A stretch of DNA of 32,000 bases from Candidatus Saccharimonadota bacterium (GCA_016699935.1 CP064992.1:1080001-1112000); one strand, 5' to 3'. Shown: positions 5,602 through 30,342, numbered from the stretch's first letter. Program-made: numbers and translations. Notes: generated by a model not told the origin, from the letters alone.

Positions 5602-6009
5602 TTAGCGTTTAGTGAATTGGCGTTGTTTGCGGGCGCCTTTGAGGCCAAACTTCTTGCGTTCGCGTTCGCGGCTATCGCGGCCGAGCAGTTCAGCGCGGCG
5701 CAATGTTGCCTTGTAGTCCTCATTCTTCTCCACGAGAGCCCTGGCAATCCCAAGACGAATCGCATCGGCTTGACCAGCGTGTCCGCCGCCACTTACAACG
5801 ACAGTTACATCGTAGTCTTTCAGTGGGAGTTCAAGCACAGCAAACGGTTTCTGGATTTCACCTAGCAGCAGTTTGCTCTCGGCAAAATATTCGGCAACTG
5901 GTTTGTTGTTGATAACAACGTTGCCTTTGCCTTTCATGAGTCGCACGCGTGCCGTGGCGCTTTTACGGCGGCCTAGAGCATAGTAGTAGTGTGAGGCTTT
6001 ATCTGCCAT
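5602..6009 (-). CDS. rpsI: 30S ribosomal protein S9
   Basis: Intact 135 aa; YYALGRRKSATARVRL ... ends RKQRQFTKR. Confidence 0.95.
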   Translation of the reverse strand: MADKASHYYYALGRRKSATARVRLMKGKGNVVINNKPVAEYFAESKLLLGEIQKPFAVLELPLKDYDVTVVVSGGGHAGQADAIRLGIARALVEKNEDYKATLRRAELLGRDSRERERKKFGLKGARKQRQFTKR

Positions 6010-6023
6010 TATGCATTCCTTTC

Positions 6024-6160
6024 CTGATTTAGCAGATCACATTGAACAGATGGCAGAAATTGAGCATTTTGCATTTTACATGCACTCGCACCTATGATTC
6101 GCCTGCTACCTGACGTCTGAAAATTTTCTGAAAACTGAAAATTGATACCTGATACCTGCA
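6024..6160 (-). repeat. Heptad-registered intergenic element, copy A (rplM | rpsI)
   Basis: CTGATTTAGCAG...GGCAGAAAT...CTGCTACCTGA...GATACCTGATACCTGCA. It fills the gap between the inferred rplM stop (6161) and the rpsI SD. Confidence 0.85.
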
Positions 6161-6600
6161 TTATTTGCTCCTCTTGAGCGAATAATGCTCTGGTTTTTGG
6201 GGGCGTGGTTATGCTCGGCGCCTGTGTATATTTTCAGGCGAGCGAGACGACCATCGCGCAGTTTATTGCCAGGTAGCATGCCGCGCACAGCTTGCAATAT
6301 TACTTCAGTGCTGTCTTTAGCAACGACGTCTTTGAGCTGTCGCTCACGCAGGCCACCTGGGTAGCCACTGTGGTTGTAATACATTTTATCGGTCATTTTA
6401 GCACCGGTAACCTGAAGCTTGTCGGCGTTAATTACTATGACAAAATCACCACAGTCAATATGACTTGTGAACATCGGCTTACCTTTACCGGTCAGTAGGG
6501 TTGCAACTTGTGTGGCAACTCGACCTAGCGTGGTTTCAGATGCATCCACGACATACCACTTTCGGGTAACCTCGCTTGGTTTTGCAGAATATGTGCTCAT
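6161..6600 (-). CDS. rplM: 50S ribosomal protein L13, C-terminal frame break
   Basis: MSTYSAKPSEVTRKWYVVDA...GYPGG. The listed ORF (6106..6600) reads through into the repeat. Adding one base in the C/A runs near 6178-6186 gives HAPQKPEHYSLKRSK* ending at 6161. Confidence 0.9.
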
Positions 6601-7143: not shown

Positions 7144-8083
7144 TTACAACTCCAATTCCGCCAGTTTATCTTTCACTTCGTCGAGTGCCTTGCTGCCAAA
7201 GCCCTTCAGGTCACGAAGTTCGGCATCGCTCAGAGCAAACAAGTCCTGAATGGTGTGAATATCGTTGTTGACGAGAGCGTTAGTTGTCCGGGCAGTAAGG
7301 TTTAGGTCTTCAATACTCGTATTGAGCATGGATCCGTCTTCGACACTTACATCACCGGCTTCATGTACAGCAGCGTTGGCTTCTTGGGCAGGAAGACGAG
7401 TTTTTCCGGCGAGTGCGGCATACTGGTTTACTAAGTATAGCGGCCGCTTCCTCAAACGCATCCCGAGAAGTAATTGTCCCGTCGGTATCAATAGTGAGAC
7501 TCAGTTTGTCGAGATCTATCATCTGGCCTACACGTGTCTTATCAACCTTATAGCGACAACGGACGACCGGACTGAAAATGGTATCAAGCGCAACGAAATC
7601 GCTTTGCTTCTTGGCCGTGCTTTCTTCAATAGTGCGGTAACCGCGACCAGTTTCAACCACGAGGTCAATGATGAGACTTGCCTTGTCGTCGTCTATGGTG
7701 GCAATGACCTGATCGGTACTTACCACCTCTATGTCGGCATTGCCTTGGATATCTTTGCCCGTAATAACACCTTTACCTTTTTTGGTAATCCGAACGGTAT
7801 GGGCATCCTCACCGTAAACACGGAAGCGCAATTGCTTCAGATTAAGCATAATTGCAACCACGTCTTCTTTTACACCTTTAATAGTCGTAAATTCATGGGT
7901 GGCGCCATCAATCTTAAAGCTGGTAATACCAGCACCACTGATACTTGAAAGTAGTACACGGCGAAGACTGTTGCCAAGTGTCATGCCGTAGCCCGTTTGT
8001 AAGGGCTCAATCACAAACGTACTGCTCGTAGCGCTGTGATCGTCGACGGCGACAAGTCCTGGAGTATGAATCATTTTTGACAT
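7144..8083 (-). CDS. rpoA: DNA-directed RNA polymerase alpha subunit, frame broken once
   Basis: N-terminal domain in 7361..8083 ([21 protein letters not shown]). C-terminal domain in 7144..7491 ([25 protein letters not shown]). The junction is near 7432-7442. Confidence 0.93.
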
Positions 8084-8103: not shown

Positions 8104-8721
8104 TTAGCGTGAGTAGTACTCAACAATTAGTTGTTCGTTAATTTCTGGTTCAGCATCTTCACGCAGCGGAATGCCGGTAATTTTCAGCTGGACTTTCTTT
8201 CGGTCTACAGTCTCCCAGTTGGGAGTAGTGCTTGGTGCTGGGCTTGTTTCATCGAGTTTCTTGAAATACTCGCTCGACTTACTATGCTCGCGGAGTTCAA
8301 TGACATCGCCTACTCGGAGTCGGATAGATGGTATATCAACGCGTCGTCCGTTCAGCATGAAGTGACCATGTGTCACAAGCTGGCGAGCAGCGCGTCTTGA
8401 TGGGGCAAAACCTGCACGGTAGACTCCATTATCAAGCCTTCTTTCTAGATACTGAAGCAATGTTGCGCCGGATTGACCGGGTGTGCGTGATGCTTCCGCC
8501 ATGAGGTTAGAGAACTGCTTCTCGAGTAGGCCATAGAGCCGCTTAACTTTCTGCTTTTCCCGCAGCTGCAAAGAATATTGGCTCGGTTTGTTCCGGGTGC
8601 GCGCATTGGCTGCCTGACCGGGCATATTTGTTCGCTTTGCAAGTGCCTTGTGTGCCTTCGGGTGCAAGGCATAGCCTTCACGGCGCGACATTTTAACGAT
8701 AGAACCAGTATCACGTGCCAT
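8104..8721 (-). CDS. rpsD: 30S ribosomal protein S4
   Basis: The true start is MARDTGSIVKMSRREG at 8721 (SD AGGAG upstream). The listed ORF start at 8754 is a repeat-borne extension. Confidence 0.93.
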   Translation of the reverse strand: MARDTGSIVKMSRREGYALHPKAHKALAKRTNMPGQAANARTRNKPSQYSLQLREKQKVKRLYGLLEKQFSNLMAEASRTPGQSGATLLQYLERRLDNGVYRAGFAPSRRAARQLVTHGHFMLNGRRVDIPSIRLRVGDVIELREHSKSSEYFKKLDETSPAPSTTPNWETVDRKKVQLKITGIPLREDAEPEINEQLIVEYYSR

Positions 8722-8734
8722 TATGCATCTCCTT

Positions 8735-8870
8735 CTGGATTTAGCAGGGAGCATTGAGCATTTGGCAGAGATTTGACAGATTGCAATTGGCAGATGTTGC
8801 CACGTGCAGCTAATCTGCTACCTGAAACCTGTGATATTTCTGTTACCTGAAAAATGTTACTTGAAGTTTT
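8735..8870 (-). repeat. Heptad-registered intergenic element, copy B (rpsK | rpsD)
   Basis: CTGGATTTAGCAGGGAGCATTGAGCATTTGGCAGAGAT...CTGCTACCTGAAACCTGTGATATTTCTGTTACCTGAAAAATG. Confidence 0.85.
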
Positions 8871-8887
8871 GAGTGGGTTGTTCACGG

Positions 8888-9289
8888 CTAGACCCTCCTT
8901 GCTTTCTTTGGTCGAACGCCGCCGTGCGGCACACCAGTCACGTCTGTGATGCTTTCTATGGCAATGCCCACTGTCTGCATAGCTCGGATTGCTGCATCTC
9001 GGCCAAGGCCAACGCCTTTGACAAAAACGTTTACCTTGCTGAGGCCATAGCCTTGCTTGGCAAGATTGCCGGCTTTTTCTGCCGCAACCTGAGCTGCATA
9101 TGCGGTACCCTTTTTAGAACCGCGGAACCCGCAGGCTCCTGCGCTGGAAGCTGCCAGTGCACCACCACTTGTGTCTGTTAGCGTAACGATTGTGTTGTTG
9201 AATGTAGCCTGAATATGCAATTGTCCAGCCGAAACGCTGCGCTTTGCCTTCTTTTTCTTGGCTACTGTTGCCGTAGGTGTATCTGCCAT
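8888..9289 (-). CDS. rpsK: 30S ribosomal protein S11
   Basis: Intact 133 aa; LHIQATFNNTIVTLTD...GFRGSKKGT. Confidence 0.95.
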   Translation of the reverse strand: MADTPTATVAKKKKAKRSVSAGQLHIQATFNNTIVTLTDTSGGALAASSAGACGFRGSKKGTAYAAQVAAEKAGNLAKQGYGLSKVNVFVKGVGLGRDAAIRAMQTVGIAIESITDVTGVPHGGVRPKKARRV

Positions 9290-9407
9290 TATGCGCTCCT
9301 CTTGGTCACTGTGGGCGAGAGGTTATAGGTTATAGGTGCTAGGTTGTTTGAAGATCCTTGAACCTTCAACATAGAACCATCAACTTGTTGAAATGCGTAG
9401 TAATTCA
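9290..9407 (-). repeat. Heptamer-array spacer (rpsM | rpsK)
   Basis: GGTTATA GGTTATA GGTGCTA GGTTG on the left faces AACC-word units on the right (GAACCTTCAACATAGAACCATCAAC). Confidence 0.6.
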
Positions 9408-9797
9408 TTAGGTCTTACTTGCTACTTTCTTAGCCGTGCCTCCGACAGTTACTTTCTTGCCCCGTCTAGTGCGTGCATTGGTTTTTGTACGCTGCCCGCG
9501 TGATGGCAAACTGTTCTTATGACGCAGACCACGGTAGCTTCCGATGTCTTTCAGACGTTTGATATTACCGCTAACGATACGCTGCAACTCACCTTCTACG
9601 GTGAGGTGTTCATTGATATAATCTTGAACCCGACCAATTTCGGCATCGGTCAAATCTTTGACGCGAACCGTTGGATCGATCTTTGCTGCCGATAGTATGC
9701 CTTCTGCTGTTTTTGGTCCAATGCCATAAACATAGGTAAGCGCGACCCATACTTGCTTTTCGGCGGGTATTGTCACACCAGATATACGTGCTGCCAT
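9408..9797 (-). CDS. rpsM: 30S ribosomal protein S13
   Basis: Intact 129 aa; MAARISGVTIPAEKQVWVALTYVYGIG. Confidence 0.95.
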   Translation of the reverse strand: MAARISGVTIPAEKQVWVALTYVYGIGPKTAEGILSAAKIDPTVRVKDLTDAEIGRVQDYINEHLTVEGELQRIVSGNIKRLKDIGSYRGLRHKNSLPSRGQRTKTNARTRRGKKVTVGGTAKKVASKT

Positions 9798-10029: not shown

Positions 10030-10279
10030 TCAGTCGGATGAACCAATCCTAGAAAGTTCAACCTTGCGGTAGGTGATCCTACCTTTGGTCAGGTCGTAAG
10101 GCGTCAACTCTACGGTGACCGCGTCGCCAGGGACAATTCGGATAAAATGCTTCCGCATCTTCCCAGCGACATGCGCAATAATCTGATGGCCATTCTCCAA
10201 GTTCGACACGAAACTGAGTACCCGGCAGGGTCTCGACAATTACGCCGTTCAGTTCGATGACTTCCTTATTACTCGCCAT
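10030..10279 (-). CDS. infA: Translation initiation factor IF-1, frame broken once
   Basis: [27 protein letters not shown] (frame of 10079..10306) then [44 protein letters not shown] (10030..10239). There is an extra G near 10196-10204. Confidence 0.9.
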
Positions 10280-10308
10280 GGTTTTTACGTCTTCGTAGTA
10301 TAGCATTT

Positions 10309-11869
10309 TTACGACGAGCTGTAAAGTGTTTTTAAATTATTACTTCTTATTTTGCGAGATTTTAGTAGGTAATCGACGCGGGGTTTTGGCACGTAGCGGA
10401 GCACCTTTGCACCGCCAGTTGTTGCGCTTAAATCATCTCCACCAAGACTGTCGTAGAAGAAGTCATTACGGCTGTATTGGTCATATGTAATCATAAGTGC
10501 CCGAGACTCAACAGCACGAAGGGTTTCCAACGATACGGCCACAAGTATAAGAACACTGGTGCCGCCTAACGCTAACGCAATGTTTTCTGGGACGAACATT
10601 TGTGCCACAATTGGCATGATTGCTAATATCCCCAAACATATTGCACCAAAGAGTGTTATTTTATTGACGGTTTTAGCTAGGTAGCGTTCTGTCTGGGTAC
10701 CGGATCGCACTCCTTCTAAGAATCCGCCCTGCTTCTGAAGGTTCTCGGCAATTTCTTTGCTATTGAACGTAATACTTGTGTAGAAGAAGGTAAACAGAAA
10801 TACCAGCAAGAAGTACGTCAGTGGGTATATATAGGCCTGCCAGCCACCCGCAGCCAAAGTTTGGGCAGTCGGGTTTTGAAACCACGTTACAAGGTTTTGA
10901 CCAAGCTCAGCCCACTTCGGGTTGCTACTAGAAGTCATGAGCTGACCTGCAAGCTTGGAACACTTAAGAATGCGATGGCAAATATAATAGGCACAACACC
11001 CGCTGTGATGAGCTTTACCGGTAGCGTCGTGGTTACTCCACCGTAGGCACGATTTCCCTGAACGCGTTTGGCGTAGTTGATCGTAAGGCGCCTAGCCGCC
11101 TCGTTCAACATGACAACTATCCACGTCACCAATATGACCACTGCCAAGATGGCGAGCGCATACCAGAACGATCGGGCATTAATGGGTAGCTCGCGTCCGA
11201 AAATCTCCCATTATTGGTCTTATCGTATATAGATGATGCCAATTGGCTAATAGTACCCGGCAAGGCGCTCACAATTCCCACTGTGATTAGGAGCGAAATG
11301 CCGTTGCCAACCGATTTCTCGGTGACAAGTTCACCCATCCACATCAGCAGCATAGAGCCGCCGGTAAGTGCAGCGACCATAAGAACCCATTGCCATAAAG
11401 ACGTATTTGCCGTTATATCGCCTATGCCGCCAACTTGCTGCGCATACTGACGAACGAGGTAGATCGATCCGATAGCCTGTATGATTGCCAGGGAAAGGTA
11501 AGCATCCGCGTATACTGGTTGATTCGCTTCTGTCCGGACTCACCATCTTTACGCATTTTTCAAGCTTTGGAAGAGCCTTGGTGAGTAGCTGCATGATAAT
11601 ACTAGCGTTGATGTACGGGCCAAGTCCGGCAATCATGATAGAGAAATTAGCAAGTGCGCCGCCACTCAGTACGTTTATGAAACTCAGTAGCTGCGGTGTA
11701 TCCTGCGATGAAAACAGGTTTGTCAGCACTTGTTTTAGCGTTTCCGGATCGGCCAAAGGCACTGGTATGTGCGCTAGGATACGAAAAATCAGCAATATTG
11801 CGAGTACGCCAAAAATGCGCTTTCGCATATCACGCGTGTAAATGATGCTCCAATAATTTTCCAGTTCAC
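10309..11869 (-). CDS. secY: Preprotein translocase SecY, frame broken at least 4 times; start uncertain
   Basis: Pieces 11331..11828, an unlisted frame at about 11380-11555 (KMRKDGESGQKRINQYTR..), 11126..11380, 10935..11147 and 10309..10938. Breaks lie near 11556 (A-run), 11490 (C-run), 11211 and 10945. A possible GTG start at 11869 follows AAGAGGGG but is out of frame with the ATG at 11828. Confidence 0.88.
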
Positions 11870-12615: not shown

Positions 12616-12837
12616 CTACGCGCCATCACTTAGTCTCCTTCTTGGGTGCTGCTTTCTTGGCGGCTGGCTTCTTGGCTGGGGTTGCTTTCTTCGTCTCGGA
12701 TGCTTTTTAACAGGGCAGCTTTCACCTCGGGCTGTTTTTGAAGATTCTTCGCTATCGCTCAGAATGACAGCTGGTTTTGCTACTTTCTTCTCTTGATTCA
12801 TGACTTGTGATTCTTGATTCTTGTGTTTTGTGGTCAC
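12616..12837 (-). CDS. Small basic K/R/P/A-rich ORF in the slot where rpmD (L30) usually sits; frame ambiguous
   Basis: The listed frame ends PRRRKQPQPRSQPPRKQHPRRR. An alternative frame ends ETKKATPAKKPAAKKAAPKKETK*, which resembles the K/A/P tails of L22, L23 and L24 here. It is not L30-like. Confidence 0.3.
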   Translation of the reverse strand: MTTKHKNQESQVMNQEKKVAKPAVILSDSEESSKTARGESCPVKKHPRRRKQPQPRSQPPRKQHPRRRLSDGA

Positions 12838-13428
12838 CCAGTTTTTCTAGGTTCAAGGCTCTCTAGGGCAGCGATAGTGGCGTACGCGATATTGGTCTTG
12901 TTGCTACTACCGAGTGATTTACTCAGTGCGTTGCTGACACCAGCTACCTCTGGGACTGTACGGACAACACCACCGGCGATAAGCCCAGTACCAGGTGCGG
13001 CAGGCATAACTAGAATGCGTGCACCGGCAACTTTACCGTCGACTTCGTGCGGGATTGTCCCTTTGTATAGCACAACTGGTGTGAAGTGCTTCTTAGCGAC
13101 CTCTGTGGCTTTGCTAACGGCGGCCGTCACATCGGCGCCCTTGGCGCTACCAATACCAACCTTGCCTTTGCGGTCTCCGACGACAACAAGGGCACGGAAT
13201 CGAAACCTACGACCACCCTTAACACGAGCAACGCGGTCGATGAACGACCCGCTCATCAAACTGTTTTTCTTCTGGTGGTTGCTGACCCCGATCATTACGT
13301 CGACCCGGTCGACCACCGTCACGGCGACCGCCGCGACCACCGTCTTGACCGCCTCGGTTAGGAGCTGATTGCGGACCCACCTGTGCAGCTTGTTCGGTTG
13401 CAGCTTGCTTGATAGCTTCTTCTGCCAT
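12834..13428 (-). CDS. rpsE: 30S ribosomal protein S5, frame broken once
   Basis: Starts MAEEAIKQAATEQ at 13428. The R/G-rich N-terminus is followed by IDRVARVKGGRRFRFRALVVVGDRKGKVGIGSAKG. The shift is near 13240-13248. Confidence 0.92.
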
Positions 13429-13787: not shown

Positions 13788-14327
13788 TTATTTATCCTTT
13801 CCTGACTTACCAGACTTGCGCAGGATGCGTTCGCCTTCGTACTTGATACCCTTGCCCTTGTAAGGCTCCGGTTTCTTGAGGGCACGGATTTCTGCAGCAA
13901 CTTGTCCGACTTGCTGTTTGTCGATACCGCTGACGGTCATTTTATTCTGCTCGACGAGGACTTGTACCCCCAGAGGAATTTTGTAAATGACATCGTGGCT
14001 AAAGCCAATATTAAGCTTAAGGTCAGTGCCCTGCATCGCAACGCGGTAGCCAACACCATTGAGCTCGAGCTGTTTGCTAAAGCCCTGGGTGACACCCTGT
14101 ACCATGTTATTGATAAGTGCCCGCATGAGGCCATGGGCGGCTCGGATCTTTGGCATATCATTCGCCCGGGTTACCGTGAGGACGCCGTCCTCTACTTTGA
14201 CTGTAATACCCTCTAGCTGAGGGGTCTCCAGATTACCTTTGGTCCCAGACACTTTGATAGCGTCTGAGTCGACAGTGATTGTCACACCGCTGGGTATCAA
14301 GATGGGTAGTTTTCCTACTCGACTCAT
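13788..14327 (-). CDS. rplF: 50S ribosomal protein L6
   Basis: Intact 179 aa; MSRVGKLPILIPSGVTITV. Confidence 0.95.
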   Translation of the reverse strand: MSRVGKLPILIPSGVTITVDSDAIKVSGTKGNLETPQLEGITVKVEDGVLTVTRANDMPKIRAAHGLMRALINNMVQGVTQGFSKQLELNGVGYRVAMQGTDLKLNIGFSHDVIYKIPLGVQVLVEQNKMTVSGIDKQQVGQVAAEIRALKKPEPYKGKGIKYEGERILRKSGKSGKDK

Positions 14328-14427
14328 TTCTTTCCTTTCGTATTTAGAATTTCAGAATTACAGAATTGCAGAGGAAAAAACTTTCTAGCGATTCTCGATT
14401 CTGAAATTTCGTAATTCATAATTCTCC
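14328..14427 (-). repeat. Heptamer/octamer-array hairpin spacer (rpsH | rplF)
   Basis: GAATTTCA GAATTACA GAATTGCA on the left faces CGATTCT CGATTCT GAAATTT CGTAATT CATAATT on the right. The arms are approximately reverse-complementary. Confidence 0.65.
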
Positions 14428-14829
14428 TTAGTACACCTGACAGATTAGTTCGCCGCCGACACCTTGGGCTTTGGCTTCTTCGCCAGTCATCAAGCCCTTG
14501 CTGGTGCTGATGATGAGGACGCCACGACCACGTTTTACCTGAGGAACTTCGCGGGCATTGGTATAAGTACGACGACCAGGTTTGCTGAGGCGCTTGATTT
14601 CGGTAATTTTTGCATTTTCACCATCGAGGTTGATAGTGATATGCAGGCGTTTACCGACACTCAGGTCCTCTGTAGTGACATCATGCAAAAAGCCGTTGTT
14701 GCGAAGACTAATTGCAACATTCTCTTTGATTTTGCTATGCGGGAGACTGACTTCGTTTTTGCCAACGGCAATTGCGTTGCGCACACGGGTCAGCATGTCT
14801 GAGATAGGATCAGTAGTGGTTACGCTCAT
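14428..14829 (-). CDS. rpsH: 30S ribosomal protein S8
   Basis: The true start is MSVTTTDPISDMLTRVRNA at 14829. The listed start at 14862 is a repeat-borne extension. Confidence 0.94.
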   Translation of the reverse strand: MSVTTTDPISDMLTRVRNAIAVGKNEVSLPHSKIKENVAISLRNNGFLHDVTTEDLSVGKRLHITINLDGENAKITEIKRLSKPGRRTYTNAREVPQVKRGRGVLIISTSKGLMTGEEAKAQGVGGELICQVY

Positions 14830-14843
14830 ACGCTTACTCCTTT

Positions 14844-14980
14844 CTGATTTAGCAGAGAGCATTGAGCATTTGGCAGAAATGTAGCAGATTTCATGTAGCA
14901 GACAGGACTACATGCAGCAACCTTGCTACCTGACACCTGTGAAATGTGTGCTATGTGAGAAATGATACCTGATACATGGA
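14844..14980 (-). repeat. Heptad-registered intergenic element, copy C (rpsN | rpsH)
   Basis: CTGATTTAGCAGAGAGCATTGAGCATTTGGCAGAAAT...CATGTAGcagacaggaCTACATG...TTGCTACCTGACACCTGTGAAATG. Confidence 0.85.
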
Positions 14981-14995
14981 GTGATGACGACTTCA

Positions 14996-15265
14996 TTACC
15001 AGCTCGCTTTCGTTACACCAGGGATCTCTCCCTTGCTTGCATGTTCGCGGAAAGACAACCGGCTCAGGCCGAATTGGCGCATGTAGGCATGTGGCCTGCC
15101 CGTTTCGATGCAGCGGTTCTTACGGCGTGTTGGTGAAGAATTGCGAGGCAATTTTGCCAAACCTTCGTAGTCACCAAGCTCCTTAAGCTCTTTGCGCTTC
15201 GCGGCGTACTTGTCTATCATCTTGATGCGCTTTTTATCACGCGCGAGGTTCGATTTCCTAGCCAT
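14996..15265 (-). CDS. rpsN: 30S ribosomal protein S14 (long, 89-aa form)
   Basis: Intact; [24 protein letters not shown]...[11 protein letters not shown]. Confidence 0.93.
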
Positions 15266-15362
15266 TATTGTGCTCCTTTCAATCGCGGCATGACGAATGA
15301 CCTATGACCAGAGACGGTTATAACGCCAGCGGATACTTCATTCTTCATACTCCATACATCAT
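15266..15362 (-). repeat. Heptamer-array spacer (rplE | rpsN)
   Basis: CATGACG AATGACC TATGACC on the left faces CTTCATT CTTCATA CTCCATA CATCATT on the right. Confidence 0.6.
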
Positions 15363-15971
15363 TCATTTCGCATTCTCCTTTTCAAACGGCATACCAAATT
15401 TCTGTAATAGCGCCTTGCTATGAGACTTGTCTTCACATTTCACGACGAAAACGGCTTGCATACCGTGAGGTGTCGTGGTTTCTTCGAATGTAAGCTCAGG
15501 AAACACACTTTGGTCGGTCAGACCAAGACTAAAGTTGCCCTGCTTGTCAAAAGCTTTGTTATTCACACCGTGGAAGTCACGCAGCCGTGGCAACACAATA
15601 TTTATGAGGCGATCCATAAACTCATACATTCGCTCGCCGCGCAGGGTCAGCTTGAGGCCGATCATATTTCCTTCACGCAATTTGAATCCAGCGATCGAGT
15701 TCTTTGCAACCGTTTCGACAGGTTCTTGGCCGGTGACTTTACGAAGTGTGTTCTTCGCTGCCTCTATGGTTTTCTTGTCTTCTTTTGCTTTGCCAAGACC
15801 GACGTTTATGACGATCTTTTCAAGCTTTGGCACCTCATGTGCATTGGTAAGGCCTAGTTCCTTTAGGAGCTCAGCTGCAAATTTTTCATTGTATTCTGCC
15901 TTGAGACGTGCAACATATGGAGTTGCTTTTTTCTTTGGGGCTGGCTTCTTGGTTGTAGTCGCTTCTGCCAT
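15363..15971 (-). CDS. rplE: 50S ribosomal protein L5
   Basis: Intact 202 aa; VPKLEKIVINVGLG. Confidence 0.95.
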   Translation of the reverse strand: MAEATTTKKPAPKKKATPYVARLKAEYNEKFAAELLKELGLTNAHEVPKLEKIVINVGLGKAKEDKKTIEAAKNTLRKVTGQEPVETVAKNSIAGFKLREGNMIGLKLTLRGERMYEFMDRLINIVLPRLRDFHGVNNKAFDKQGNFSLGLTDQSVFPELTFEETTTPHGMQAVFVVKCEDKSHSKALLQKFGMPFEKENAK

Positions 15972-16374
15972 TACAGTACCTTCGCTTCCTTCTTCGAATC
16001 AGCCTTTTTGGCTGGCGCTTCGATCTTCACTTCTTTGCCGCTCGCCTTATAGATGCGCTTCTTGCTGCCATCTTTGCCAAGCTCATAACCGATACGGGTT
16101 GGTTTCTTGGTTGTCGGGTCTATGACAGCCACTTTACTGACCCAGATTGGCTTGGTGATTTCGAGGATTCCTCCTGTGGGTGAGCCTGGTTCGGCTTCTG
16201 ATGCTTCTTGACTATGTTGATTCCTTCTACCGTGACTTTATTCTCAGTAGCGTGAGTTGTTAGAACCCGGCCTTGCTTGCCCTTGTATTTGCCACTCAGA
16301 ACCTGCACAAGGTCACCTTTCTTTAGTCTAATCTTCACTCTCTTGTCTCTTGTATCTTGGCTTTTGACTCTCAT
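15971..16374 (-). CDS. rplX: 50S ribosomal protein L24, frame broken once
   Basis: [21 protein letters not shown], then after a shift near 16170-16180 [30 protein letters not shown]...KEAKVL*. The stop overlaps the rplE ATG (TAATG). Confidence 0.92.
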
Positions 16375-16743
16375 TTATAGTACCTCCGGAGCTAGGCTAA
16401 TAATCTTGGCGTAGCCCATATCACGCAGTTCTCTTGGTACGGGTCCGAATATACGCGTTCCTTGGGGTTCTTATCGTCACCAATGATGACTGCGGCATTG
16501 TCATCGAATTTGATAGTGCTGCCGTCTTTGCGCTTGATTTCTTTCTTGGTACGAACGACCACGGCGCGAACGACTGACTTTTTCTTGACGTTACCAGTCG
16601 GGCTGGCTTGCTTGACGGTAGCAGTGATGACATCACCAACCTTAGCGTAGCGCTTGCGGGAAGCCACCAAGAACTCGGATGCAGAGGATTTCCTTGGCAC
16701 CGCTGTTGTCGCAGACGACAAGACGGGTTTCTTGCTGAACCAT
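16375..16743 (-). CDS. rplN: 50S ribosomal protein L14, frame broken twice
   Basis: Starts [27 protein letters not shown] at 16743. The middle piece is [18 protein letters not shown]... The tail is [28 protein letters not shown]. Shifts lie near 16661 and 16460. Confidence 0.92.
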
Positions 16744-16890
16744 TAGAAGGCTCCTTTCAGTCGCGGAAGCATGGAGTATGGAGTATGAATTATGCCAGCA
16801 GCTCCGTAGCTGTTTGTTTTCCATTCATGATTCATGATTCTTTCTCCTTGTCTGTCACCCCAGGAACTTCCACTGCTTTTTCGACGTGCT
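16744..16890 (-). repeat. Heptamer-array hairpin spacer (rpsQ | rplN)
   Basis: CATGGAG TATGGAG TATGAAT TATG on the left faces CCATTCA TGATTCA TGATTC on the right. A small central hairpin is present (CAGCAGCTCCGTAGCTG). Confidence 0.65.
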
Positions 16891-17133
16891 TCACCTCAGC
16901 TTTTCGACAACTGCCTGAAGCGTAAAGCTTTTGCGCTTGCTGATAGGCCGGGTTTCAACGATGACGACTTTGTCGCCAATGTTAGCTTCATTCTGTTCGT
17001 CATGTGCCATAAATTTGGTCGTTGTGGTGTATTGCTTTCGGTAGAGTGGGTGCGTTTTTCGCTCTCGTACGGTAACGACAATGGTCTTGTCGGCCTTGTT
17101 GCTACTGACGACACCAGTAATTGATTTCGCCAT
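16891..17133 (-). CDS. rpsQ: 30S ribosomal protein S17
   Basis: Intact 80 aa; [29 protein letters not shown]. Confidence 0.94.
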
Positions 17134-17333
17134 TACTTGGCCTCCTTAACTAAATATTCGCTTAAAACGGTCAGCATACGCGAAAGGTCTTTGCGCTTGT
17201 TACGTACAGCACGCACGTTCTGATTGTCACCCATGTATATATGACGACGTAGCTCAGCGATTTCGTCCTTAAGCTTCACTGTTTCTTTGGTAAGCTCCGA
17301 AGTAGTGAGCTTGCGGATATCAGCAATTTTCAT
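17133..17333 (-). CDS. rpmC: 50S ribosomal protein L29
   Basis: Intact 66 aa; the stop overlaps the rpsQ ATG. Confidence 0.9.
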
Positions 17334-17452
17334 CTAAAGGCTCCTTTCGGTCGTCACAAGGCTTTGGGCTGAGAGCTGAGACCATAGTTCACTAGAGCCA
17401 ACTCTGCCCTTTGCCCCTTGCCCTTTGCTCTGATAAGATACGAGGTTTTTCA
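17334..17452 (-). repeat. Heptamer-array spacer (rplP | rpmC)
   Basis: GGCTTTG GGCTGAG AGCTGAG on the left faces GCCCTTT GCCCCTT GCCCTTT GCTCTG on the right. Confidence 0.6.
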
Positions 17453-17866
17453 TTACACGCCCTCCTTCACAACAAATTTTGTCTTGACTGGCAGCTTGTG
17501 GCCAGCGAGACGCATTGCTTCTCGAGCAGTTTCCTCGCTAACACCCTGCATTTCAAACATAATGGTGCCAGGTCGGACTTTAGCAACGAAAAACTCAGGG
17601 CTACCTTTGCCACTACCCATTTTGACATCGAGCGGCTTGCGGGTGACTGGCGTATGAGGGAATATGCGGATCCAGATTTTGCCACCACGCTTGATGTAAC
17701 GAGTCATGGCCTGTCTTGAGGCCTCAATCTGTCGGCTTGTAATACGCTCGTGACCTTGTGCTTGGAGCGCGTATTCGCCGTAGGCAATATAGTTCCCGGC
17801 CGTCGCCACGCCACGGATCTTGCCCTTGCGAACTTTCCGGAATTTGGTTCTTTTCGGCAATAATAT
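17453..17866 (-). CDS. rplP: 50S ribosomal protein L16; non-ATG start
   Basis: ..[18 protein letters not shown]. At the position where sister genes have ATG (SD plus 7 nt) the codon is ATA (17866). A TTG follows at 17860. The listed start at 17899 is a repeat-borne ATG. Confidence 0.9.
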
Positions 17867-17880
17867 TAGAAAGCTCCTTT

Positions 17881-18010
17881 CTGATTTAGCAGAAAGCATT
17901 CAGCATTTGGCAGAAATATAGCAGATGGCATGTGGCAGATGTTGCCACGCGCAGCTAACCTGCTACCTGACACCTGTGAAATTTCTGCTACCTGAAAAAT
18001 GATACCTGCA
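17881..18010 (-). repeat. Heptad-registered intergenic element, copy D (rpsC | rplP)
   Basis: CTGATTTAGCAGAAAGCATTCAGCATTTGGCAGAAAT...GTGGCAgatgtTGCCAC...CTGCTACCTGACACCTGTGAAATTTCTGCTACCTGAAAAATGATACCTGCA. Confidence 0.9.
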
Positions 18011-18030
18011 TAGTGGGACGACGCTGTCAT

Positions 18031-18660
18031 TTATTTGTCCCCCTTATATATCCAAACTTTGACACCAATAATGCCTGCACCGGGCCAGTTGGCACGAGCT
18101 GCAGCATAATCAATGTCGGCACGTATGGTATGTAAAGGCACAGAACCAACCGCTTCTTTCTCACGACGGCTCATTTCGGCACCATTTAAGCGCCCAGCAA
18201 CTTCTATACGGACACCTTTTGCACCCGCACGCATCGTTGCAGCGCTGGCGCTCTTGATGGCGCGGCGGAAACTCATGCGACGCTCAAGCTGATGAGCGAT
18301 GTTCTCGGCGACAAGTTTTGCATAGAGGTCAGGTTTTTTGACTTCTTCTATGTTGACGCGGGCTGGTACTCCATAAACCTTTTCAATAGCAGCTTTGAGC
18401 TCCTGCGCTCCTTGACCACCGCGACCGATGACTACGCCAGCCTTAGCCGTTGCAATCGTCACCGTTACGAGGTTTGGTGAGCGCTCAATATCTACTTTGT
18501 TGATAGCGCCGCGAGAGCCAAATTTGTCCTGGATTAGTTTGCGAACTTGCAAGTCCTGCGCAAGATAACCAGCATACTGGCGCTTGCTTACAAACCACTT
18601 GCTCCGCCAATCCTTATTGGCCTGCAGACGCATAGAAATAGGATTTACCTTCTGTCCCAT
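18031..18660 (-). CDS. rpsC: 30S ribosomal protein S3
   Basis: Intact 209 aa; MGQKVNPISMRLQANKDWRSKWF. Confidence 0.95.
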   Translation of the reverse strand: MGQKVNPISMRLQANKDWRSKWFVSKRQYAGYLAQDLQVRKLIQDKFGSRGAINKVDIERSPNLVTVTIATAKAGVVIGRGGQGAQELKAAIEKVYGVPARVNIEEVKKPDLYAKLVAENIAHQLERRMSFRRAIKSASAATMRAGAKGVRIEVAGRLNGAEMSRREKEAVGSVPLHTIRADIDYAAARANWPGAGIIGVKVWIYKGDK

Positions 18661-19049
18661 TACTTTGCCTCCTTCTTATCCGCGGCCTTGGCAGCTGCAG
18701 GTTTTTTAGCAGGACGTTGCTCGCCATCGACGAGTACGCGAATATGTGATGAACGCTTCATGTAAGGCAAGGCGCGGCCCATGGCTGCAGGGCGGAAACG
18801 CTTCATGCGAGGCCCGTGATTGACAGTGATTTCGGTAATGACAAGGGTATCTGCCTTGTAGTTGTGGTTGTGAGCGGCGTTAGCCTGTGCACTCTTGATT
18901 GTTTTGAGAACAGATAGTGCGGAGCGCCGTGGCGTGTGTTCGAGGATAACGATAGCATCGGCGACGGTGCGACCACGCACGAGCGCTGCCACAGCAGCCA
19001 CCTTACGTGGGCTTAATCGAACGCCTTTAGACTCGGCTTTTACAGACAT
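18660..19049 (-). CDS. rplV: 50S ribosomal protein L22
   Basis: The true start is MSVKAESKGVRLSPRKV at 19049. The listed start at 19082 is a repeat-borne extension. Confidence 0.93.
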   Translation of the reverse strand: MSVKAESKGVRLSPRKVAAVAALVRGRTVADAIVILEHTPRRSALSVLKTIKSAQANAAHNHNYKADTLVITEITVNHGPRMKRFRPAAMGRALPYMKRSSHIRVLVDGEQRPAKKPAAAKAADKKEAK

Positions 19050-19063
19050 CAGAAAGCTCCTTT

Positions 19064-19206
19064 CTGATTTAGCAGTGAGCATTGAGCATTTGGCAGAAAT
19101 TTGGCAGGTTGCATTTGGATGGTGACTTCGGTTGCAGCCTGTCTGCTACTTGAAACCTGTAAAATTTCTGCTACCTGAAAAATGCTACCTGAAAAATATG
19201 AAACCT
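19064..19206 (-). repeat. Heptad-registered intergenic element, copy E (rpsS | rplV)
   Basis: CTGATTTAGCAGTGAGCATTGAGCATTTGGCAGAAAT...CTGCTACTTGAAACCTGTAAAATTTCTGCTACCTGAAAAATGCTACCTGAAAAAT. Confidence 0.9.
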
Positions 19207-19214
19207 GTTTCATC

Positions 19215-19487
19215 TTATTTCCCCTTCGCTAACTTACCGCCGTGACTGCGGAACTTACGGGTAGGGCTAAACTCACCCAGTTTATGGCCAACCATGTTTT
19301 CGGTGACAAATACTGGTACGTGCACCTTGCCGTTATGGACAGCAAAGGTTTTACCGACAAAGTCTGGAGCAATCGTACAGCTACGCGCCCAAGTTTTTAT
19401 GATGGTGCGATCCTCTGGGCCTTGGCCAGCGACTTTTTTCGCGAGCTTCGGATCGATAAACGGCCCTTTCTTCAGTGAACGACTCAT
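19215..19487 (-). CDS. rpsS: 30S ribosomal protein S19
   Basis: Intact 90 aa; [15 protein letters not shown]. Confidence 0.95.
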
Positions 19488-19644
19488 CTGACGCTCCTTT
19501 CAGTCGCTTCAATATGCAATTTACAATTCTCAATTTTCATTACATCTGCGACTTGCGATTTGCGGTTTACAGCTGCATTGCTAATTGGTAATTGATAATT
19601 CATTGGTAATTGGTAATTGGTAATTGGTAATTGGAGCATCGCGA
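19488..19644 (-). repeat. Heptamer-array spacer with (TAATTGG)n tandem repeat (rplB | rpsS)
   Basis: CAATATG CAATTTA CAATTCT CAATTTT on the left faces TAATTGG TAATTGA TAATTCA TTGG then 4 x TAATTGG (about 19583-19637) on the right. Confidence 0.8.
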
Positions 19645-20475
19645 CTATTTCCTCTTGGCCGCGTGGCGGCTTCTTACGATCATATTGCTTGTATCTTTGC
19701 GGCGACGGGTCTTGAAGCCAAGGGTCTTCTGACCCCACGGCGTACGTGGCGCTTTGCCCATTCGGTGACGACCACCATCTCCACCACCGTGCGGGTGATC
19801 GACTGCATTCATTACGACACCGCGAACGCTTGGGCGTTTACCCAGGTGACGATTGCGTCCAGCCTTACCGATTTTGACATTCTGATGTTGCTCATTGCCG
19901 ACCACGCCGACACTGGCAGTACAGACGAGGAGGAACTTGCGAACTTCGCCGCTGGGCATACGCACCTGAGCGTAATCGCCTTCTTTGGCCATGAGCATGG
20001 CGCTATTGCCAGCGCTACGCACAGCCTGTGCGCCTCGGCCTGGCTTGAGCTCGAGCGCATGGATGGTTGTGCCGACAGGGATATTGGCTAGTGGCAAACG
20101 GTTACCCATCTCTATAGCAGCTTCTGCGTGCGCAGCTAGTTTCTGCCCTTGTTTCATGCCGCTGGCGGCAAGTACATAGTGGTAGACCCCTTTGTCATCT
20201 TTGACACGGGCTATGCGAGCGCTCCGATTTGGGTCGTATTCGATGTGTTCGATAACGCCTTCGCCTTTGAAGTCAAAGTTCACGAGGCGATAATGCTTAC
20301 GCGCTCCACCACCCTGATGCCTCGTGGTTATGCGACCTTGGTTGTTTCGACCATTGCCACGCCGTTTTGTAACAGTGAGCGAGCGAAGTGGTTTGCGGGT
20401 CGTAACAGCATCAAAATCTTGACTAGACATACCACGTCGGCCGGGAGTTGTTGGATTATACTGCTTAATAGCCAT
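19645..20475 (-). CDS. rplB: 50S ribosomal protein L2
   Basis: Intact 276 aa; VDHPHGGGDG. Confidence 0.96.
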   Translation of the reverse strand: MAIKQYNPTTPGRRGMSSQDFDAVTTRKPLRSLTVTKRRGNGRNNQGRITTRHQGGGARKHYRLVNFDFKGEGVIEHIEYDPNRSARIARVKDDKGVYHYVLAASGMKQGQKLAAHAEAAIEMGNRLPLANIPVGTTIHALELKPGRGAQAVRSAGNSAMLMAKEGDYAQVRMPSGEVRKFLLVCTASVGVVGNEQHQNVKIGKAGRNRHLGKRPSVRGVVMNAVDHPHGGGDGGRHRMGKAPRTPWGQKTLGFKTRRRKDTSNMIVRSRHAAKRK

Positions 20476-24451: not shown

Positions 24452-24475
24452 GGTATAAAAACCTCCGGTTTTTAA

Positions 24476-24503
24476 TAGTTAGTAGTTGGTAGTTGGTAGT
24501 TAG
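24476..24503 (-). repeat. Tandem heptamers TAGTTAG TAGTTGG TAGTTGG TAGTTAG in the rpsJ leader
   Basis: Direct reading of the sequence; adjacent to the SD hairpin at 24457-24473. Confidence 0.8.
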
Positions 24504-24658: not shown

Positions 24659-25078
24659 CTACGTTTTCTTCCTGTAAAAACGTAGGGCGGAGGCAACTTT
24701 TTTGTGGATGGGTTCTTTGGGTGGCTTAGTCGCATACTCGGCAAAGACACTATTTACAAAGTCATCTATTTCATCATCGGTCATGCCAGTTAGGGAATCC
24801 CCGTTTACGTCGTTAAGGCCAGATTCGCGGTAGGAAACGGTGCTGGTACCGGTGTGGAACTGGTGGAGAAGGTCGTAGGCTTTGCGACTTTGGCTTCCCT
24901 GCAAGGTCGAATAAGCCTCATTAAGTCGTTGCATATCCTCCAGGGTTCCCCCAGCATCGGGATGCTGCTGCTTTGCCAGCCGGACAAAAGCACTACGTAT
25001 GTCTACAGCTAAAGCATCTGGCTGGATACCAAGCAGCTGGTAGTAGTCGACAAATGAGTTGCTAGTTTCGTGTGTCAT
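24659..25078 (-). CDS. Stand-alone J-domain (DnaJ-like) protein
   Basis: Intact 139 aa; DYYQLLGIQPDA..IRSAFVRLAKQQHPDAGG (HPD motif) ..AYSTLQGSQSRKAYD. No Zn-finger or C-terminal DnaJ domains. Confidence 0.8.
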   Translation of the reverse strand: MTHETSNSFVDYYQLLGIQPDALAVDIRSAFVRLAKQQHPDAGGTLEDMQRLNEAYSTLQGSQSRKAYDLLHQFHTGTSTVSYRESGLNDVNGDSLTGMTDDEIDDFVNSVFAEYATKPPKEPIHKKVASALRFYRKKT

Positions 25079-26782: not shown

Positions 26783-27136
26783 CTATTCGTATTTAAGCTT
26801 TAGATCGAGTTTGTCAGCGATTTGAAAAATCCATTTTTCCATGCGTACTTGTTGGGCGTCGCGAGCCACATTATCTTGTAGGATATCTTCAATGCGTTTC
26901 ATGTGGCCATCCAGTATCTGGAAAATTTTGTTTATTTTTGCATCGATTTCATCAAACCGTTTATCGTGTTCCTCGAGTTTGCTTTCAACGCGGAACAGTC
27001 GAGCATCCATAGCGTCGAACCGTTGATCCATAGCGTCGAACCGTTGATCCATAGCGTCGAACCGCTCGGAAACCATCGTGGTTATATCAGAAATAGCTCC
27101 GATTACATCATCCAGATCGGTTGGCTTCTTGGGCAT
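26783..27136 (-). CDS. Small coiled-coil protein with RFDAMDQ heptad repeats
   Basis: Intact 117 aa; ..SERFDAMDQRFDAMDQRFDAMDARLFRVESKLEEHDKRFDEIDAKI.. Confidence 0.6.
   Translation of the reverse strand: MPKKPTDLDDVIGAISDITTMVSERFDAMDQRFDAMDQRFDAMDARLFRVESKLEEHDKRFDEIDAKINKIFQILDGHMKRIEDILQDNVARDAQQVRMEKWIFQIADKLDLKLKYE
27005..27067. repeat. 3 x 21-bp tandem repeat (ATCCATAGCGTCGAACCGTTG) inside the coiled-coil ORF
   Basis: Two perfect units plus a third that diverges at its end. Confidence 0.9.
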
Positions 27137-29243: not shown

Positions 29244-29255
29244 TTTGTCTCCTTA

Positions 29256-29287
29256 GAGTTAAGAGTTATGAGATAAGAGATAAGATC
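29256..29287. repeat. Inverted-repeat arm (downstream side) bracketing the four-helix-bundle gene
   Basis: GAGTTAAGAGTTATGAGATAAGAGATAAGA. This is the reverse complement of 29654-29683 at 28 of 30 positions and is built of GAGNTAA heptads. Confidence 0.9.
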
Positions 29288-29653
29288 TTATTTCGTACCA
29301 TTTGTTTTATTGATTAAACCTGTCAGTAGCTTGTGGCATTCTATGCTTGCATCGTCTAGACTTTGGTGTCTATCTTGCAAAATATAACCAACATCTTTTG
29401 CGACTAAGAGTTGCGCTTGTACTTCGTGCAATGACGCTCGTGCCATATCGTAAAAATGTGCTCGATCAGCCATCGTACGTCGACCAAAACCTTCAGCAAT
29501 ATTTGAAACTAATGAGACTGAAGCTCTTCGTATCTGGTTGGTTAGACCAAAGATTTCATCTCGTGGAAACTCTTTTGTAATCCTATAAATGTCTAGAGTC
29601 AGAGCGTGGGATTTCTGCCAAGCTATGAGGTCGCGAAATGTGTGGATACTCAT
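29288..29653 (-). CDS. Four-helix-bundle protein of the '23S rRNA intervening-sequence protein' family (Avd-like fold)
   Basis: Intact 121 aa; FRDLIAWQKSHALTLDIYRITKEFPRDEIFGLTNQIRRASVSLVSNIAEGFGR...FYDMARASLHEVQAQLLVAKDVGYI is the typical family signature. Confidence 0.85.
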   Translation of the reverse strand: MSIHTFRDLIAWQKSHALTLDIYRITKEFPRDEIFGLTNQIRRASVSLVSNIAEGFGRRTMADRAHFYDMARASLHEVQAQLLVAKDVGYILQDRHQSLDDASIECHKLLTGLINKTNGTK

Positions 29654-29683
29654 TCTTAACTCTTATCTCATATCTCTTAACTC
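29654..29683. repeat. Inverted-repeat arm (upstream side) bracketing the four-helix-bundle gene
   Basis: TCTTAACTCTTATCTCATATCTCTTAACTC, starting immediately after the start codon position. Confidence 0.9.
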
Positions 29684-29696
29684 TACTAAACGTAGT

Positions 29697-30176
29697 TTAG
29701 CCGCGGGCGAAGTGCGCGAAGGCGCGGTTAGCGTCGGCCATGCGGTGCGTATCTTCACGCTTCTTGACGGCTGAACCTTGATTGTTGTAAGCATCCATTA
29801 GCTCGGCAGCGATGCGGTCAGCCATGCTCATGCCCTTGCGGGAACGGCAGGCGGCGACGAACCACATGGTAGTCAGGTGATTTTGGCGCTGGCCTTTGAC
29901 TTCAAATGGAATCTGATAGTTGGCACCACCAACGCGGCGAGAGCGAGTCTCGACGTTCGGGCGTATATTGCCCATGGCTTGGTCAAATACGTCTAGTGGG
30001 TTTTCGACTTTCAGTTTGTCGGCAGCTTTTTGCATACCGGTATAGACTAGCCGCTCGGCGACTTGCTTTTTGCCGTCGCGCATAACGCGGTTGATGAGAC
30101 GCTGCACCGGCACACTGTTGTATATACGGTCAGCTGGTATGTCTCGAACTAGTGAGGCAGTTACTTTCCTAGGCAT
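29697..30176 (-). CDS. rpsG: 30S ribosomal protein S7
   Basis: The true start is MPRKVTASLVRDIPADRIYNS at 30176. The listed start at 30212 is a repeat-borne extension. Confidence 0.94.
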   Translation of the reverse strand: MPRKVTASLVRDIPADRIYNSVPVQRLINRVMRDGKKQVAERLVYTGMQKAADKLKVENPLDVFDQAMGNIRPNVETRSRRVGGANYQIPFEVKGQRQNHLTTMWFVAACRSRKGMSMADRIAAELMDAYNNQGSAVKKREDTHRMADANRAFAHFARG

Positions 30177-30189
30177 TAGAGGCTCCTTT

Positions 30190-30329: not shown

Positions 30330-30342
30330 AAGGGCGCAGTCA

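Follow-up and report, generated by a model that had tools for sequence, protein, structure and literature searches.

Heptad-armed cassettes spanned by open reading frames: probable intervening-sequence-like insertions in the ribosomal-protein operons of a clade of Saccharibacteria

What fills the junctions between neighbouring ribosomal-protein genes when these junctions measure 100-166 nt, and how is such a filling tolerated by the operon? The question arises from a stretch of 32,000 nt (CP064992.1:1080001-1112000, assembly GCA_016699935.1), called the window here, which comes from a member of Candidatus Saccharibacteria, order Saccharimonadales. The str, S10, spc and alpha ribosomal-protein operons are encoded on its minus strand, between S12 (position 30756) and S9 (5602). 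An initial annotation of the window had noticed about 14 enlarged junctions and described those at 14328-17452, among others, as spacers built from tandem heptamers with complementary arms. The number is the same in our measurement, and the same junctions are a few nucleotides long in most Saccharibacteria. The observations presented below suggest that the enlarged junctions probably form one superfamily of short insertion cassettes (80-170 nt) whose spread in a single clade of Saccharimonadales is recent. We propose that hairpin cassettes resembling the intervening sequences (IVSs) of 23S rRNA colonised stop-start junctions and are tolerated as translation runs through them. We assign this reading a probability of about 0.6 overall, with higher confidence in the insertion and in the open frame, and lower confidence in processing and mobility.

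A cassette consists of five parts, read in the direction of the genes: 1) a start codon placed over or beside the stop codon of the upstream gene (TAATG or ATGA); 2) an arm of about four 7-nt words; 3) a short loop; 4) an arm of roughly complementary words; 5) a conserved 3' module, CGACYRAARGGAG, which forms a strong Shine-Dalgarno (SD) sequence and is followed by a stop codon over the ATG of the next gene. Different word families share both the 5' module TGAAAnnCTTCGCATCTCATCAG and the 3' module, which is CGACYRAARGGAG followed by 4-6 nt and ATG, and the arm length holds near 4 units (28 nt). The extended SD sequence that had been considered common to all spacers is present as GCGAnTGAAAGGAGC at three junctions (L5-S14, S17-L14 and L2-S19), while elsewhere it is represented by variants of the form CGACYRAARGGAG.

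All 12 cassettes of the window are spanned by an open reading frame (ORF), the relay ORF, which extends from the upstream stop to the downstream ATG. Its start codon, ATG (once GTG), overlaps or closely follows the upstream stop, and its own stop overlaps or abuts the next ATG. The relay ORFs are located, all on the minus strand, at 6009-6161, 8721-8885, 9289-9408, 14324-14419, 14826-14996, 15265-15366, 16743-16835, 17334-17453, 17866-18030, 19049-19213, 19484-19639 and 30176-30343.

The cassettes, which also lie on the minus strand, differ in their details. The S8-L6 cassette (14324-14427) carries its own SD, GGAG, at 14424-14427, a left arm at 14389-14424 and a right arm of 8-nt words at 14342-14371; the SD for L6 is at 14330-14339, and the 31-codon relay ORF (14419 to 14324) ends with a TGA that overlaps the L6 ATG. 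The L5-S14 cassette (15265-15366) has a left arm of GTATGAA-type words at 15333-15362, a right arm at 15290-15309 and the 3' module GCGATTGAAAGGAGC at 15272-15286; its 33 codons begin within ATGA, shared with the L5 stop, and end within TAATG, shared with the S14 start. The spacer between S17 and L14 had been given as 16744-16890. The cassette itself occupies 16743-16840, with a left arm of GAATCAT words at 16821-16840, a right arm at 16766-16790, the 3' module at 16750-16764 and a 30-codon relay ORF (16835 to 16743); the remainder, 16841-16890, is the C-terminal tail of S17, whose frame is lost by a 1-nt deletion. In the L16-L29 cassette (17334-17453), the 5' module (17430-17452), the left arm of GCAAAGG words (17402-17429), the right arm (17360-17380) and the 3' module (17340-17353) follow one another, and the 39 codons start in a TAATG shared with the L16 stop and end with a TAG directly before the L29 ATG. 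The left arm of the L2-S19 cassette (19484-19644) contains CCAATTA x8 (19576-19634); the right arm is at 19510-19543, the 3' module is at 19493-19507, the fold has a z-score of -2.1, and the 51-codon ORF (19639 to 19484) has a TGA overlapping the S19 ATG. The S13-S11 cassette (9289-9408), with a left arm at 9356-9381 and a right arm of AACCTAT words (GGTTAGA family) at 9320-9345, is spanned by 39 codons from TAATG to TAATG.

A further element, present in six copies in the window (D1), had been set apart from these spacers. It has the same build with longer arms and belongs to the same superfamily. Its S14-S8 copy (14826-14996) has arms of CAGGTAG-like and CTGCYAN-like heptads and a 56-codon ORF, whose start shares TAATG with the S14 stop and whose stop shares ATGA with the S8 start. 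The S3-L16 copy (17866-18030) has a relay ORF of 54 codons, and the sister copies are at 6009-6161, 8721-8885, 19049-19213 and 30176-30343.

Tandem Repeats Finder (TRF) gives 39 rows for the window, 15 of them with period 7, including 9320-9345, 15333-15362, 16771-16787, 16823-16840, 17405-17428, 19547-19568, 19577-19634, 24476-24501, 29255-29285 and 29654-29684. The sole period-8 array, 14342-14372, is the one in which an 8-nt word had been noticed, and arrays are found at every other position that the initial annotation had named, including the one-armed array near 24476-24503. The autocorrelation, measured as the fraction of identical bases at a given lag, is 0.376 at lag 7 in 14 spacers of the window versus 0.258 in shuffled sequences (z 11.6), and 0.342 at lag 14 (z 8.6), which confirms the proposed periodicity. 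It reaches 0.400 at lag 7 (z 37) in 106 spacers of the closest relatives. By the same measure, the signal is absent from the coding sequence, where only period 3 is seen, and from the spacers of other Saccharibacteria. Strong period-7 arrays occur 77 times within 260 kb from the clade, 3 times within 932 kb from other Saccharibacteria and 0 times in non-Saccharibacteria; in the same scan of clade and non-clade loci, arrays with the other periods between 4 and 12 are near zero.

The idea that a left array faces a right array of its complement holds as well, with about four heptads, a loop and the complementary arm in each cassette. Taken over 19 word families, a right word agrees with the complement of its left word at 5.03 of the 7 positions. 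Permuted pairings give 3.89 +/- 0.16, and none of 709 permutations reaches the observed value. The copies of relatives fold better than those of the window, with z below -2 in 52 of 111 and a lowest value of -6. Because the relatives carry cleaner copies and the arms are complementary across 19 families, the heptad-arm architecture is real and the window holds degenerate copies of it. The antisense strand folds more stably in 80 of the 111 copies; according to the shuffles, base composition explains 2.5 of the 3.8 kcal/mol of this advantage, so that it gives no verdict on the strand.

The distribution of the cassettes shows that they are insertions. A search with the L5 protein yields 70 Saccharibacteria loci (93-57% identity), which comprise operon neighbourhoods and are designated here by three-digit handles from L001 onwards; L002 and L003 come from activated sludge. 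In the resulting matrix of 28 junctions by 70 loci, junctions of 80-170 nt concentrate in the window and 14 close relatives (L001-L011, L015, L056), and among these the cassettes are present or absent junction by junction. The L16-L29 junction is filled in the window and in L001 only, the other loci having TAAgATG or TAATG; the two fillings have homologous flanks and different cores, with GCAAAGG words in the window and GGTTAGA words in L001. The GCAAAGG family of the window reappears at S17-L14 in L002 and at S13-S11 in L001. The S8-L6 junction contains three unrelated word families across the relatives and is empty (17 nt) in L002. L5-S14 is empty (TAATG) in L004-L008, L010, L012 and L015, and is filled by other families in L001, L003, L009, L011 and L056. 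Orthologs of the S17-L14 cassette are present in L006 and L007. Near-identical copies recur within one genome: L056 has five, L004 four and L003 three. Members of the GAGACAA family fill 6 junctions over L002, L003 and L009, and those of the AAACTAC family 4 junctions in L004. The identity of such paralogous copies extends from the upstream stop codon to the downstream ATG and includes the non-repeat 5' modules, loops and 3' modules. Cassettes are thus gained, lost and swapped at stop-start junctions and copied nearly unchanged to new junctions within a genome. The enlarged spacers, which had been taken for a fixed feature of the operon, are polymorphic among close relatives. Of 88 clade cassettes, 50 have TAATG as their right boundary and 28 as their left; this motif could be a target-site duplication or, equally, a functional stop-start overlap.

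According to one alternative, which is the view of the initial annotation, the cassettes are untranslated structured spacers selected for the host as processing sites for RNase III or another nuclease, or as barriers to 3'-exonucleases, through which the stability of one operon segment relative to another is adjusted; open frames would then be incidental. The hairpin potential in relatives and the strong SD after each hairpin agree with this explanation, as does the fact that similar arms are RNase III substrates in Coxiella. The open frame, however, is strand-specific and far above expectation, and every copy in the window has it. Among the clade cassettes, 67 of 88 are open from boundary to boundary, compared with 6.5 expected when the interior is shuffled. 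On the sense strand, 78 of 88 have a frame free of stops; on the antisense strand, which has the same repeat structure and therefore serves as a control, 21 of 88 do. Moreover, word families are swapped at one and the same junction, and since most Saccharibacteria and some close relatives lack an insert at these junctions, the cassettes do not reflect a conserved need of the host. This explanation is unlikely.

The relay ORFs might instead be genuine small protein genes (30-56 aa) that contain repeats and whose peptides are the function. ORFs with coupled starts and stops do span nearly all cassettes, and gene callers already call such ORFs in relatives. However, in three heptad families the differences are spread flatly over the codon positions (0.25/0.24/0.23, 0.31/0.30/0.26 and 0.31/0.27/0.29), nonsynonymous single changes exceed synonymous ones by about 2.5-3.5:1, and purifying selection is not detected. 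The relay peptides have no match in a profile search of Pfam and NCBIfam. They fall into many unrelated families whose presence varies among close relatives, their C-termini (LKGA-, TERS-, EGRNA) are translated Shine-Dalgarno sequences, and both the repeats and the arm complementarity are features at the nucleotide level. The flat codon positions, the nonsynonymous excess and the lack of a family match together show that the open frame is maintained and not the peptide product, and we see little chance that the peptides are what is selected. The small-protein explanation is also supported by a non-heptad junction mini-ORF family (..REKSSQSARIHFATLRDEKNRKVCL..), which lies on a GC-rich hairpin in L002, L004, L006, L011 and L015 and shows a third-position excess, synonymous differences numbering 55 and nonsynonymous ones 48. 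This family may encode a genuine small protein, or may reflect an RNA-structure constraint. Other junction mini-ORFs, between S12 and S7 (L201, 2146-2476; L205, 2351-2488), are protein genes without a family in public calls. A role of the heptads as three-frame stops was considered and discarded; it is true only of some words (GAGATAA, GTATCTA, GTATGAA), and open frames are the rule.

It is also conceivable that the arrays are simple-sequence repeats (SSRs), immobile and unrelated to IVSs, that grew in place by polymerase slippage, a process for which heptamers are a preferred unit in bacteria. A general excess of heptamer SSRs in bacteria, together with a slippage hypothesis, is attributed to Mrazek 2007. 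The heptamer copy number varies among Coxiella strains (PMC4990558). The mismatches between the arms are periodic, which suggests that each arm probably expanded from one founder unit, with slippage shaping the arms. Stop avoidance as the source of these mismatches was rejected on inspection of the words, perfect complements being equally free of stops. Slippage nevertheless meets whole cassettes, including non-repeat modules and loops, that are near-identical at different junctions, an arm length that stays near 4 units, and a 30-fold enrichment of arrays at the ends of the genes described below. Probably, slippage shapes the arms and leaves the dispersal unexplained; as a full account it is rather improbable.

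The window contains a number of frameshifts in essential genes: EF-G (27155-29243), SecY (10309-11828), L14 (16392-16743), L24 (15972-16374), S5 (12834-13428), IF-1 (10030-10306), RpoA (7144-8083) and S17 (near 16895). As these genes are intact in the relatives, the frameshifts most likely stem from indel errors in a long-read assembly, which have probably degraded the repeat arms of the window too. That the cassettes themselves are an artefact of an error-prone long-read genome, which so many frameshifts might suggest, is refuted by cleaner copies of the same families in 14 independent short-read metagenome-assembled genomes (MAGs) from different studies and assemblers.

The relation to IVSs is suggested by the junction between S7 and EF-G. 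The inverted repeat at 29256-29287 and 29654-29683 had been listed among the spacers. Rather than an empty spacer, it flanks a gene of the 23S_rRNA_IVP (four-helix-bundle) family, PF05635 (E 1e-35), which encodes 121 aa and occupies 29288-29653 on the minus strand within a cassette at 29250-29690. The left arm, (GAGWTAA)x4 at 29654-29683, abuts the ATG of this gene; the right arm, 29255-29285, starts 2 nt past its stop and is followed by the SD and the ATG of EF-G. The arm-arm duplex has an energy of -46.1 kcal/mol versus -14.9 +/- 3.7 for shuffled sequences (z -8.5), and in the whole cassette (z -5.3) the arms close both the minimum-energy and the centroid fold. Cassettes of the same design are present at the same site in L201, L203 and L205, and a PF05635 ORF is placed in the loop in the same way in L207 and L215. 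The IVP homologues in other Saccharibacteria are situated at S7-EF-G or atpG-atpD and have the same arms and 3' module. In L207, a Saccharibacterium, the IVP-family gene is between atpG and atpD; in L211 (Pseudanabaena galeata plasmid) and L212 (Anabaena sp. 90 plasmid), heptad-armed IVP genes lie between cas6 and cas4 of CRISPR operons. The orientation in these three is always sense, inside a conserved operon.

This arrangement extends to four other phyla. With one detector, a period-7 array is found at an end of 16 of 18 IVP-family genes, taken from Saccharibacteria, Cyanobacteriota, Bacteroidota, Alphaproteobacteria and metagenomes, versus 19 of 1321 control genes, and arrays occur at 7.9/kb at the IVP gene ends versus 0.26/kb in the rest of the same loci. 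Arrays accompany every IVP-family gene encountered elsewhere, among them ten plasmid genes from Nostoc, Calothrix, Pseudanabaena, Anabaena, Geminocystis, Stanieria, Riemerella, Gemmatirosa (octamers) and Azospirillum, and the independent genes on three metagenome contigs, which come from a scan for GAGAYAA x3. The arm duplex has z between -5.6 and -8.7 in 9 of 10 cassettes tested and -2.6 in L117. One of the nine is from Azospirillum, where the IVP gene sits in a true helix-45 intervening sequence of 23S rRNA whose stem has four heptads per arm. In the Coxiella IVS, 3-4 GACAGAT heptamers precede the S23p ATG, and RNase III cleaves within a terminal stem of 28 bp (PMC4990558); we found no other paper in the searchable literature that ties heptameric repeats to an IVS. 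XCC0516 of Xanthomonas campestris, the closest solved homologue of the window's IVP protein (2GSC, five chains), has a four-unit GGGAATC array overlapping its start codon (PMC4692102 supplement). Among metagenome contigs (L081-L200, 23-68% GC), (GAGACAA)n and (GAGATAA)n arrays are found, many of the matches being unrelated microsatellites; complementary arrays lie downstream in L084, L082 and L110. The same words thus recur far beyond the clade. L111 has a heptad array with a spanning ORF at the L2-S19 junction, and in L166 and L193 heptad arrays are in frame inside genes such as ligA.

By combining these observations, it is possible to describe how a cassette may work if the proposed IVS-like insertion is correct. 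Ribosomes that end the upstream gene would restart on the cassette ATG, read through the cassette while melting the hairpin, terminate on the next ATG and restart there. As translation would be relayed through the insert, the chain of coupled cistrons would stay unbroken and no long naked RNA would be exposed. Arms that are free of ribosomes would form a stem of about 28 bp, similar to those that RNase III cuts in true intervening sequences; both this processing and the mobility of the cassettes are suggested by analogy. The spread may have used the TAATG/SD microhomology common to all junctions, or a factor such as the IVP protein.

Several points weigh against this proposal. The copies of the window fold like dinucleotide shuffles, with z from +0.4 to -2.1, so that the folding expected by the initial annotation fails in the window taken alone and is seen in the relatives. 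The stems have 1-2 mismatches per heptad, and compensatory changes number 0 in two ortholog sets, in which the variation is too small to judge. The sampled DNA is the operon and its surroundings rather than whole genomes, and it contains no transposase, no clear target-site duplication and no RNase III gene. The sample of IVP genes is partly biased, two metagenome loci having been found via the heptad pattern itself. The kinship between the cassettes with and without an IVP gene would rest on architecture, GAGNYAA words and the 3' module, and not on traced ancestry. Relay translation is not universal, since all frames are interrupted by stops in about 10 of 88 cassettes, which belong to the GAGATAA and GTATCTA families. 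In the GAGATAA copies at S8-L6 (six orthologs), the SD is 5' of the hairpin and the ATG is 7-10 nt 3' of the hairpin base, and folding would place them side by side. Gene 38 of phage T4 offers a known example of such a split ribosome-binding site. Cleavage by RNase III would sever the SD from the ATG of these copies and would be harmful.

The cassettes appear, by analogy, to be the mRNA counterpart, without an IVP ORF, of 23S rRNA intervening sequences. Like the IVSs of Coxiella, Leptospira, Salmonella and Alphaproteobacteria, they are stem-loops closed by terminal inverted repeats of about 28 bp; the closing stem is strong in the IVP cassette at 29250-29690 and, among the copies without an IVP ORF, strong in relatives and weak in the window. 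Both groups have two size classes, a short one of about 100 nt that lacks an ORF and a longer one of about 430 nt that contains an IVP ORF in its loop, here the S23p/PF05635 gene at 29288-29653. Both are distributed sporadically among close relatives, as the junction matrix shows for the cassettes, both may have heptamers in the stem (GACAGAT in Coxiella; Azospirillum), and both are inserted in the sense orientation into highly transcribed units. In contrast to IVSs, the cassettes occupy stop-start junctions in protein-coding operons (str, S10, spc, alpha, atp), and their start codon, open frame, SD and stop are matched to the adjoining genes. As the copies all lie between protein genes, outside helices 9, 25 and 45 of 23S rRNA, they are IVS-like and not IVSs. 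Cutting by RNase III is documented in the literature for the Coxiella IVS only and would apply to the cassettes by analogy. Short non-intron insertions have been reported in rRNA genes of Saccharibacteria (PMC11270868).

The initial annotation knew of no description of such a hairpin of heptads in ribosomal operons. The design as such has precedents: convergent four-unit heptamers are known from Xanthomonas and a heptamer stem cut by RNase III from Coxiella (PMC4692102, PMC4990558). The GGGAATC arrays of Xanthomonas are intergenic and mostly of four units, with 70-75 convergent, stem-loop-capable pairs per genome (Rehm et al. 2015, PMC4692102); most lie between co-oriented genes, near the upstream ORF, and their positions vary between sister species. 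The cassettes share with them the convergent four-unit heptamers and the variable position. The Xanthomonas repeat differs in having a single G-rich word, studied as a quadruplex former, with no relay ORF, shared end modules or IVS link described. In the searchable literature we found no description of many word families with one set of end modules, of colonised stop-start junctions, of the relay ORF, or of heptad arms regularly flanking PF05635 genes in different phyla.

The kinship with the cyanobacterial short tandemly repeated repetitive (STRR) sequences, suggested by the initial annotation, is well founded as to the tandem intergenic 7-nt units, although the cassette DNA is spanned by ORFs. 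TAACTGA repeats are known from Beggiatoaceae, Cyanobacteria and Bacteroidetes, and arrays of them are described directly upstream of start codons, also inside ribosomal-protein operons, in Beggiatoaceae (MacGregor 2015, PMC4679880). The window has a one-armed array, (CTAACTA/CCAACTA)x4, at 24472-24503 on the minus strand, 21 nt upstream of the S10 ATG; its word CTAACTA is 6/7 identical to TAACTGA, and the same site in L003 and L008 has (TAACTAC)x4.5. The IVP genes on cyanobacterial plasmids are bracketed by tandem heptamer arrays. The STRR and TAACTGA repeats differ from the cassettes in being mostly one-armed direct arrays of a single word, with no hairpin design or ORF described.

Other small repeats are less similar. 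The Rickettsia palindromic elements, which Ogata et al. are said to have described in 2000, are reportedly selfish elements of 100-150 nt in a reduced genome, tolerated by staying translatable. They are inserted into coding sequences in frame, so that the host protein comes to include them, and they are without heptads, whereas the cassettes are separate mini-cistrons. Only a GAGACAA-type heptad array at 16339-16359, within the stretch 16339-16371, on the minus strand, which forms an in-frame N-terminal extension of L24, is comparable; it is also present in L003, L004, L008 and L009 and not in L001 and L002. Correia, ERIC and REP/REPIN elements are small dispersed palindromes between co-transcribed genes that spread within genomes, and some of them are cut by RNase III or alter mRNA stability. 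Unlike repeats similar to miniature inverted-repeat transposable elements, the cassettes show no transposase-type terminal repeats, clear target duplication or RAYT in the DNA sampled, and their arm sequence varies freely while the end modules are conserved. No terminator-like site is present on the minus strand inside any cassette, and there is no promoter signal. Rfam gives no match at the gathering score in the whole window, and at E<=1 over 14000-20000 only a chance eukaryotic match inside coding sequence.

A broader, speculative and rather doubtful extension is that heptad-stem cassettes constitute one pan-bacterial class of mobile elements, the complete form of which would carry a 23S_rRNA_IVP gene in the loop. 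The pentameric, Avd-like IVP product would recognise the heptad-repeat stem and promote its copying into heavily transcribed sites, such as rRNA tetraloops and stop-start junctions. STRR sequences, the GGGAATC repeats of Xanthomonas, the TAACTGA repeats of Beggiatoaceae and the repeats of this clade might then be derivatives without an ORF, and the relay ORF might have evolved in compact coupled operons, making such derivatives nearly harmless. The main reading itself connects, through a single testable architecture, the 23S rRNA IVSs, whose origin and mobility have been puzzling since 1990, the PF05635 family and the heptamer excess long noted in some bacteria. For the clade itself, the data indicate that the most conserved operon of a 1-Mb genome is open to repeated invasion, and they suggest a route: an insert that brings its own start, open frame, SD and stop leaves translational coupling intact. 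In practice, the mini-ORFs are annotated as hypothetical proteins in Saccharibacteria MAGs and the junction lengths of marker genes are altered.

Several neighbouring features were noted. At the L2-S19 junction, where the window has only the 157-nt CCAATTA cassette, inserts of 270-500 nt in L002, L007, L015, L033, L041, L043, L055, L064 and L067 carry a sense ORF of 90-164 aa, several with an EPPLTE-like motif. In L001 and L009, unrelated small membrane-like peptides are encoded directly upstream of the S8-L6 hairpin. Between S10 and L3 (22170-24119), the window has about 1.95 kb of unknown ORFs, a region that ranges from 0.2 to 4 kb across Saccharibacteria. A DnaJ-domain protein is encoded between EF-Tu and S10 (24659-25078). 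The hydrophobic ORF between S5 and L15 (12433-12573) has 46 aa (MIVMMVPIIAGWRNIQWVTTIVGILVASF...), and the 117-aa coiled-coil ORF between EF-G and EF-Tu (26783-27136) contains a perfect 21-nt x2.9 repeat at 27005-27064.

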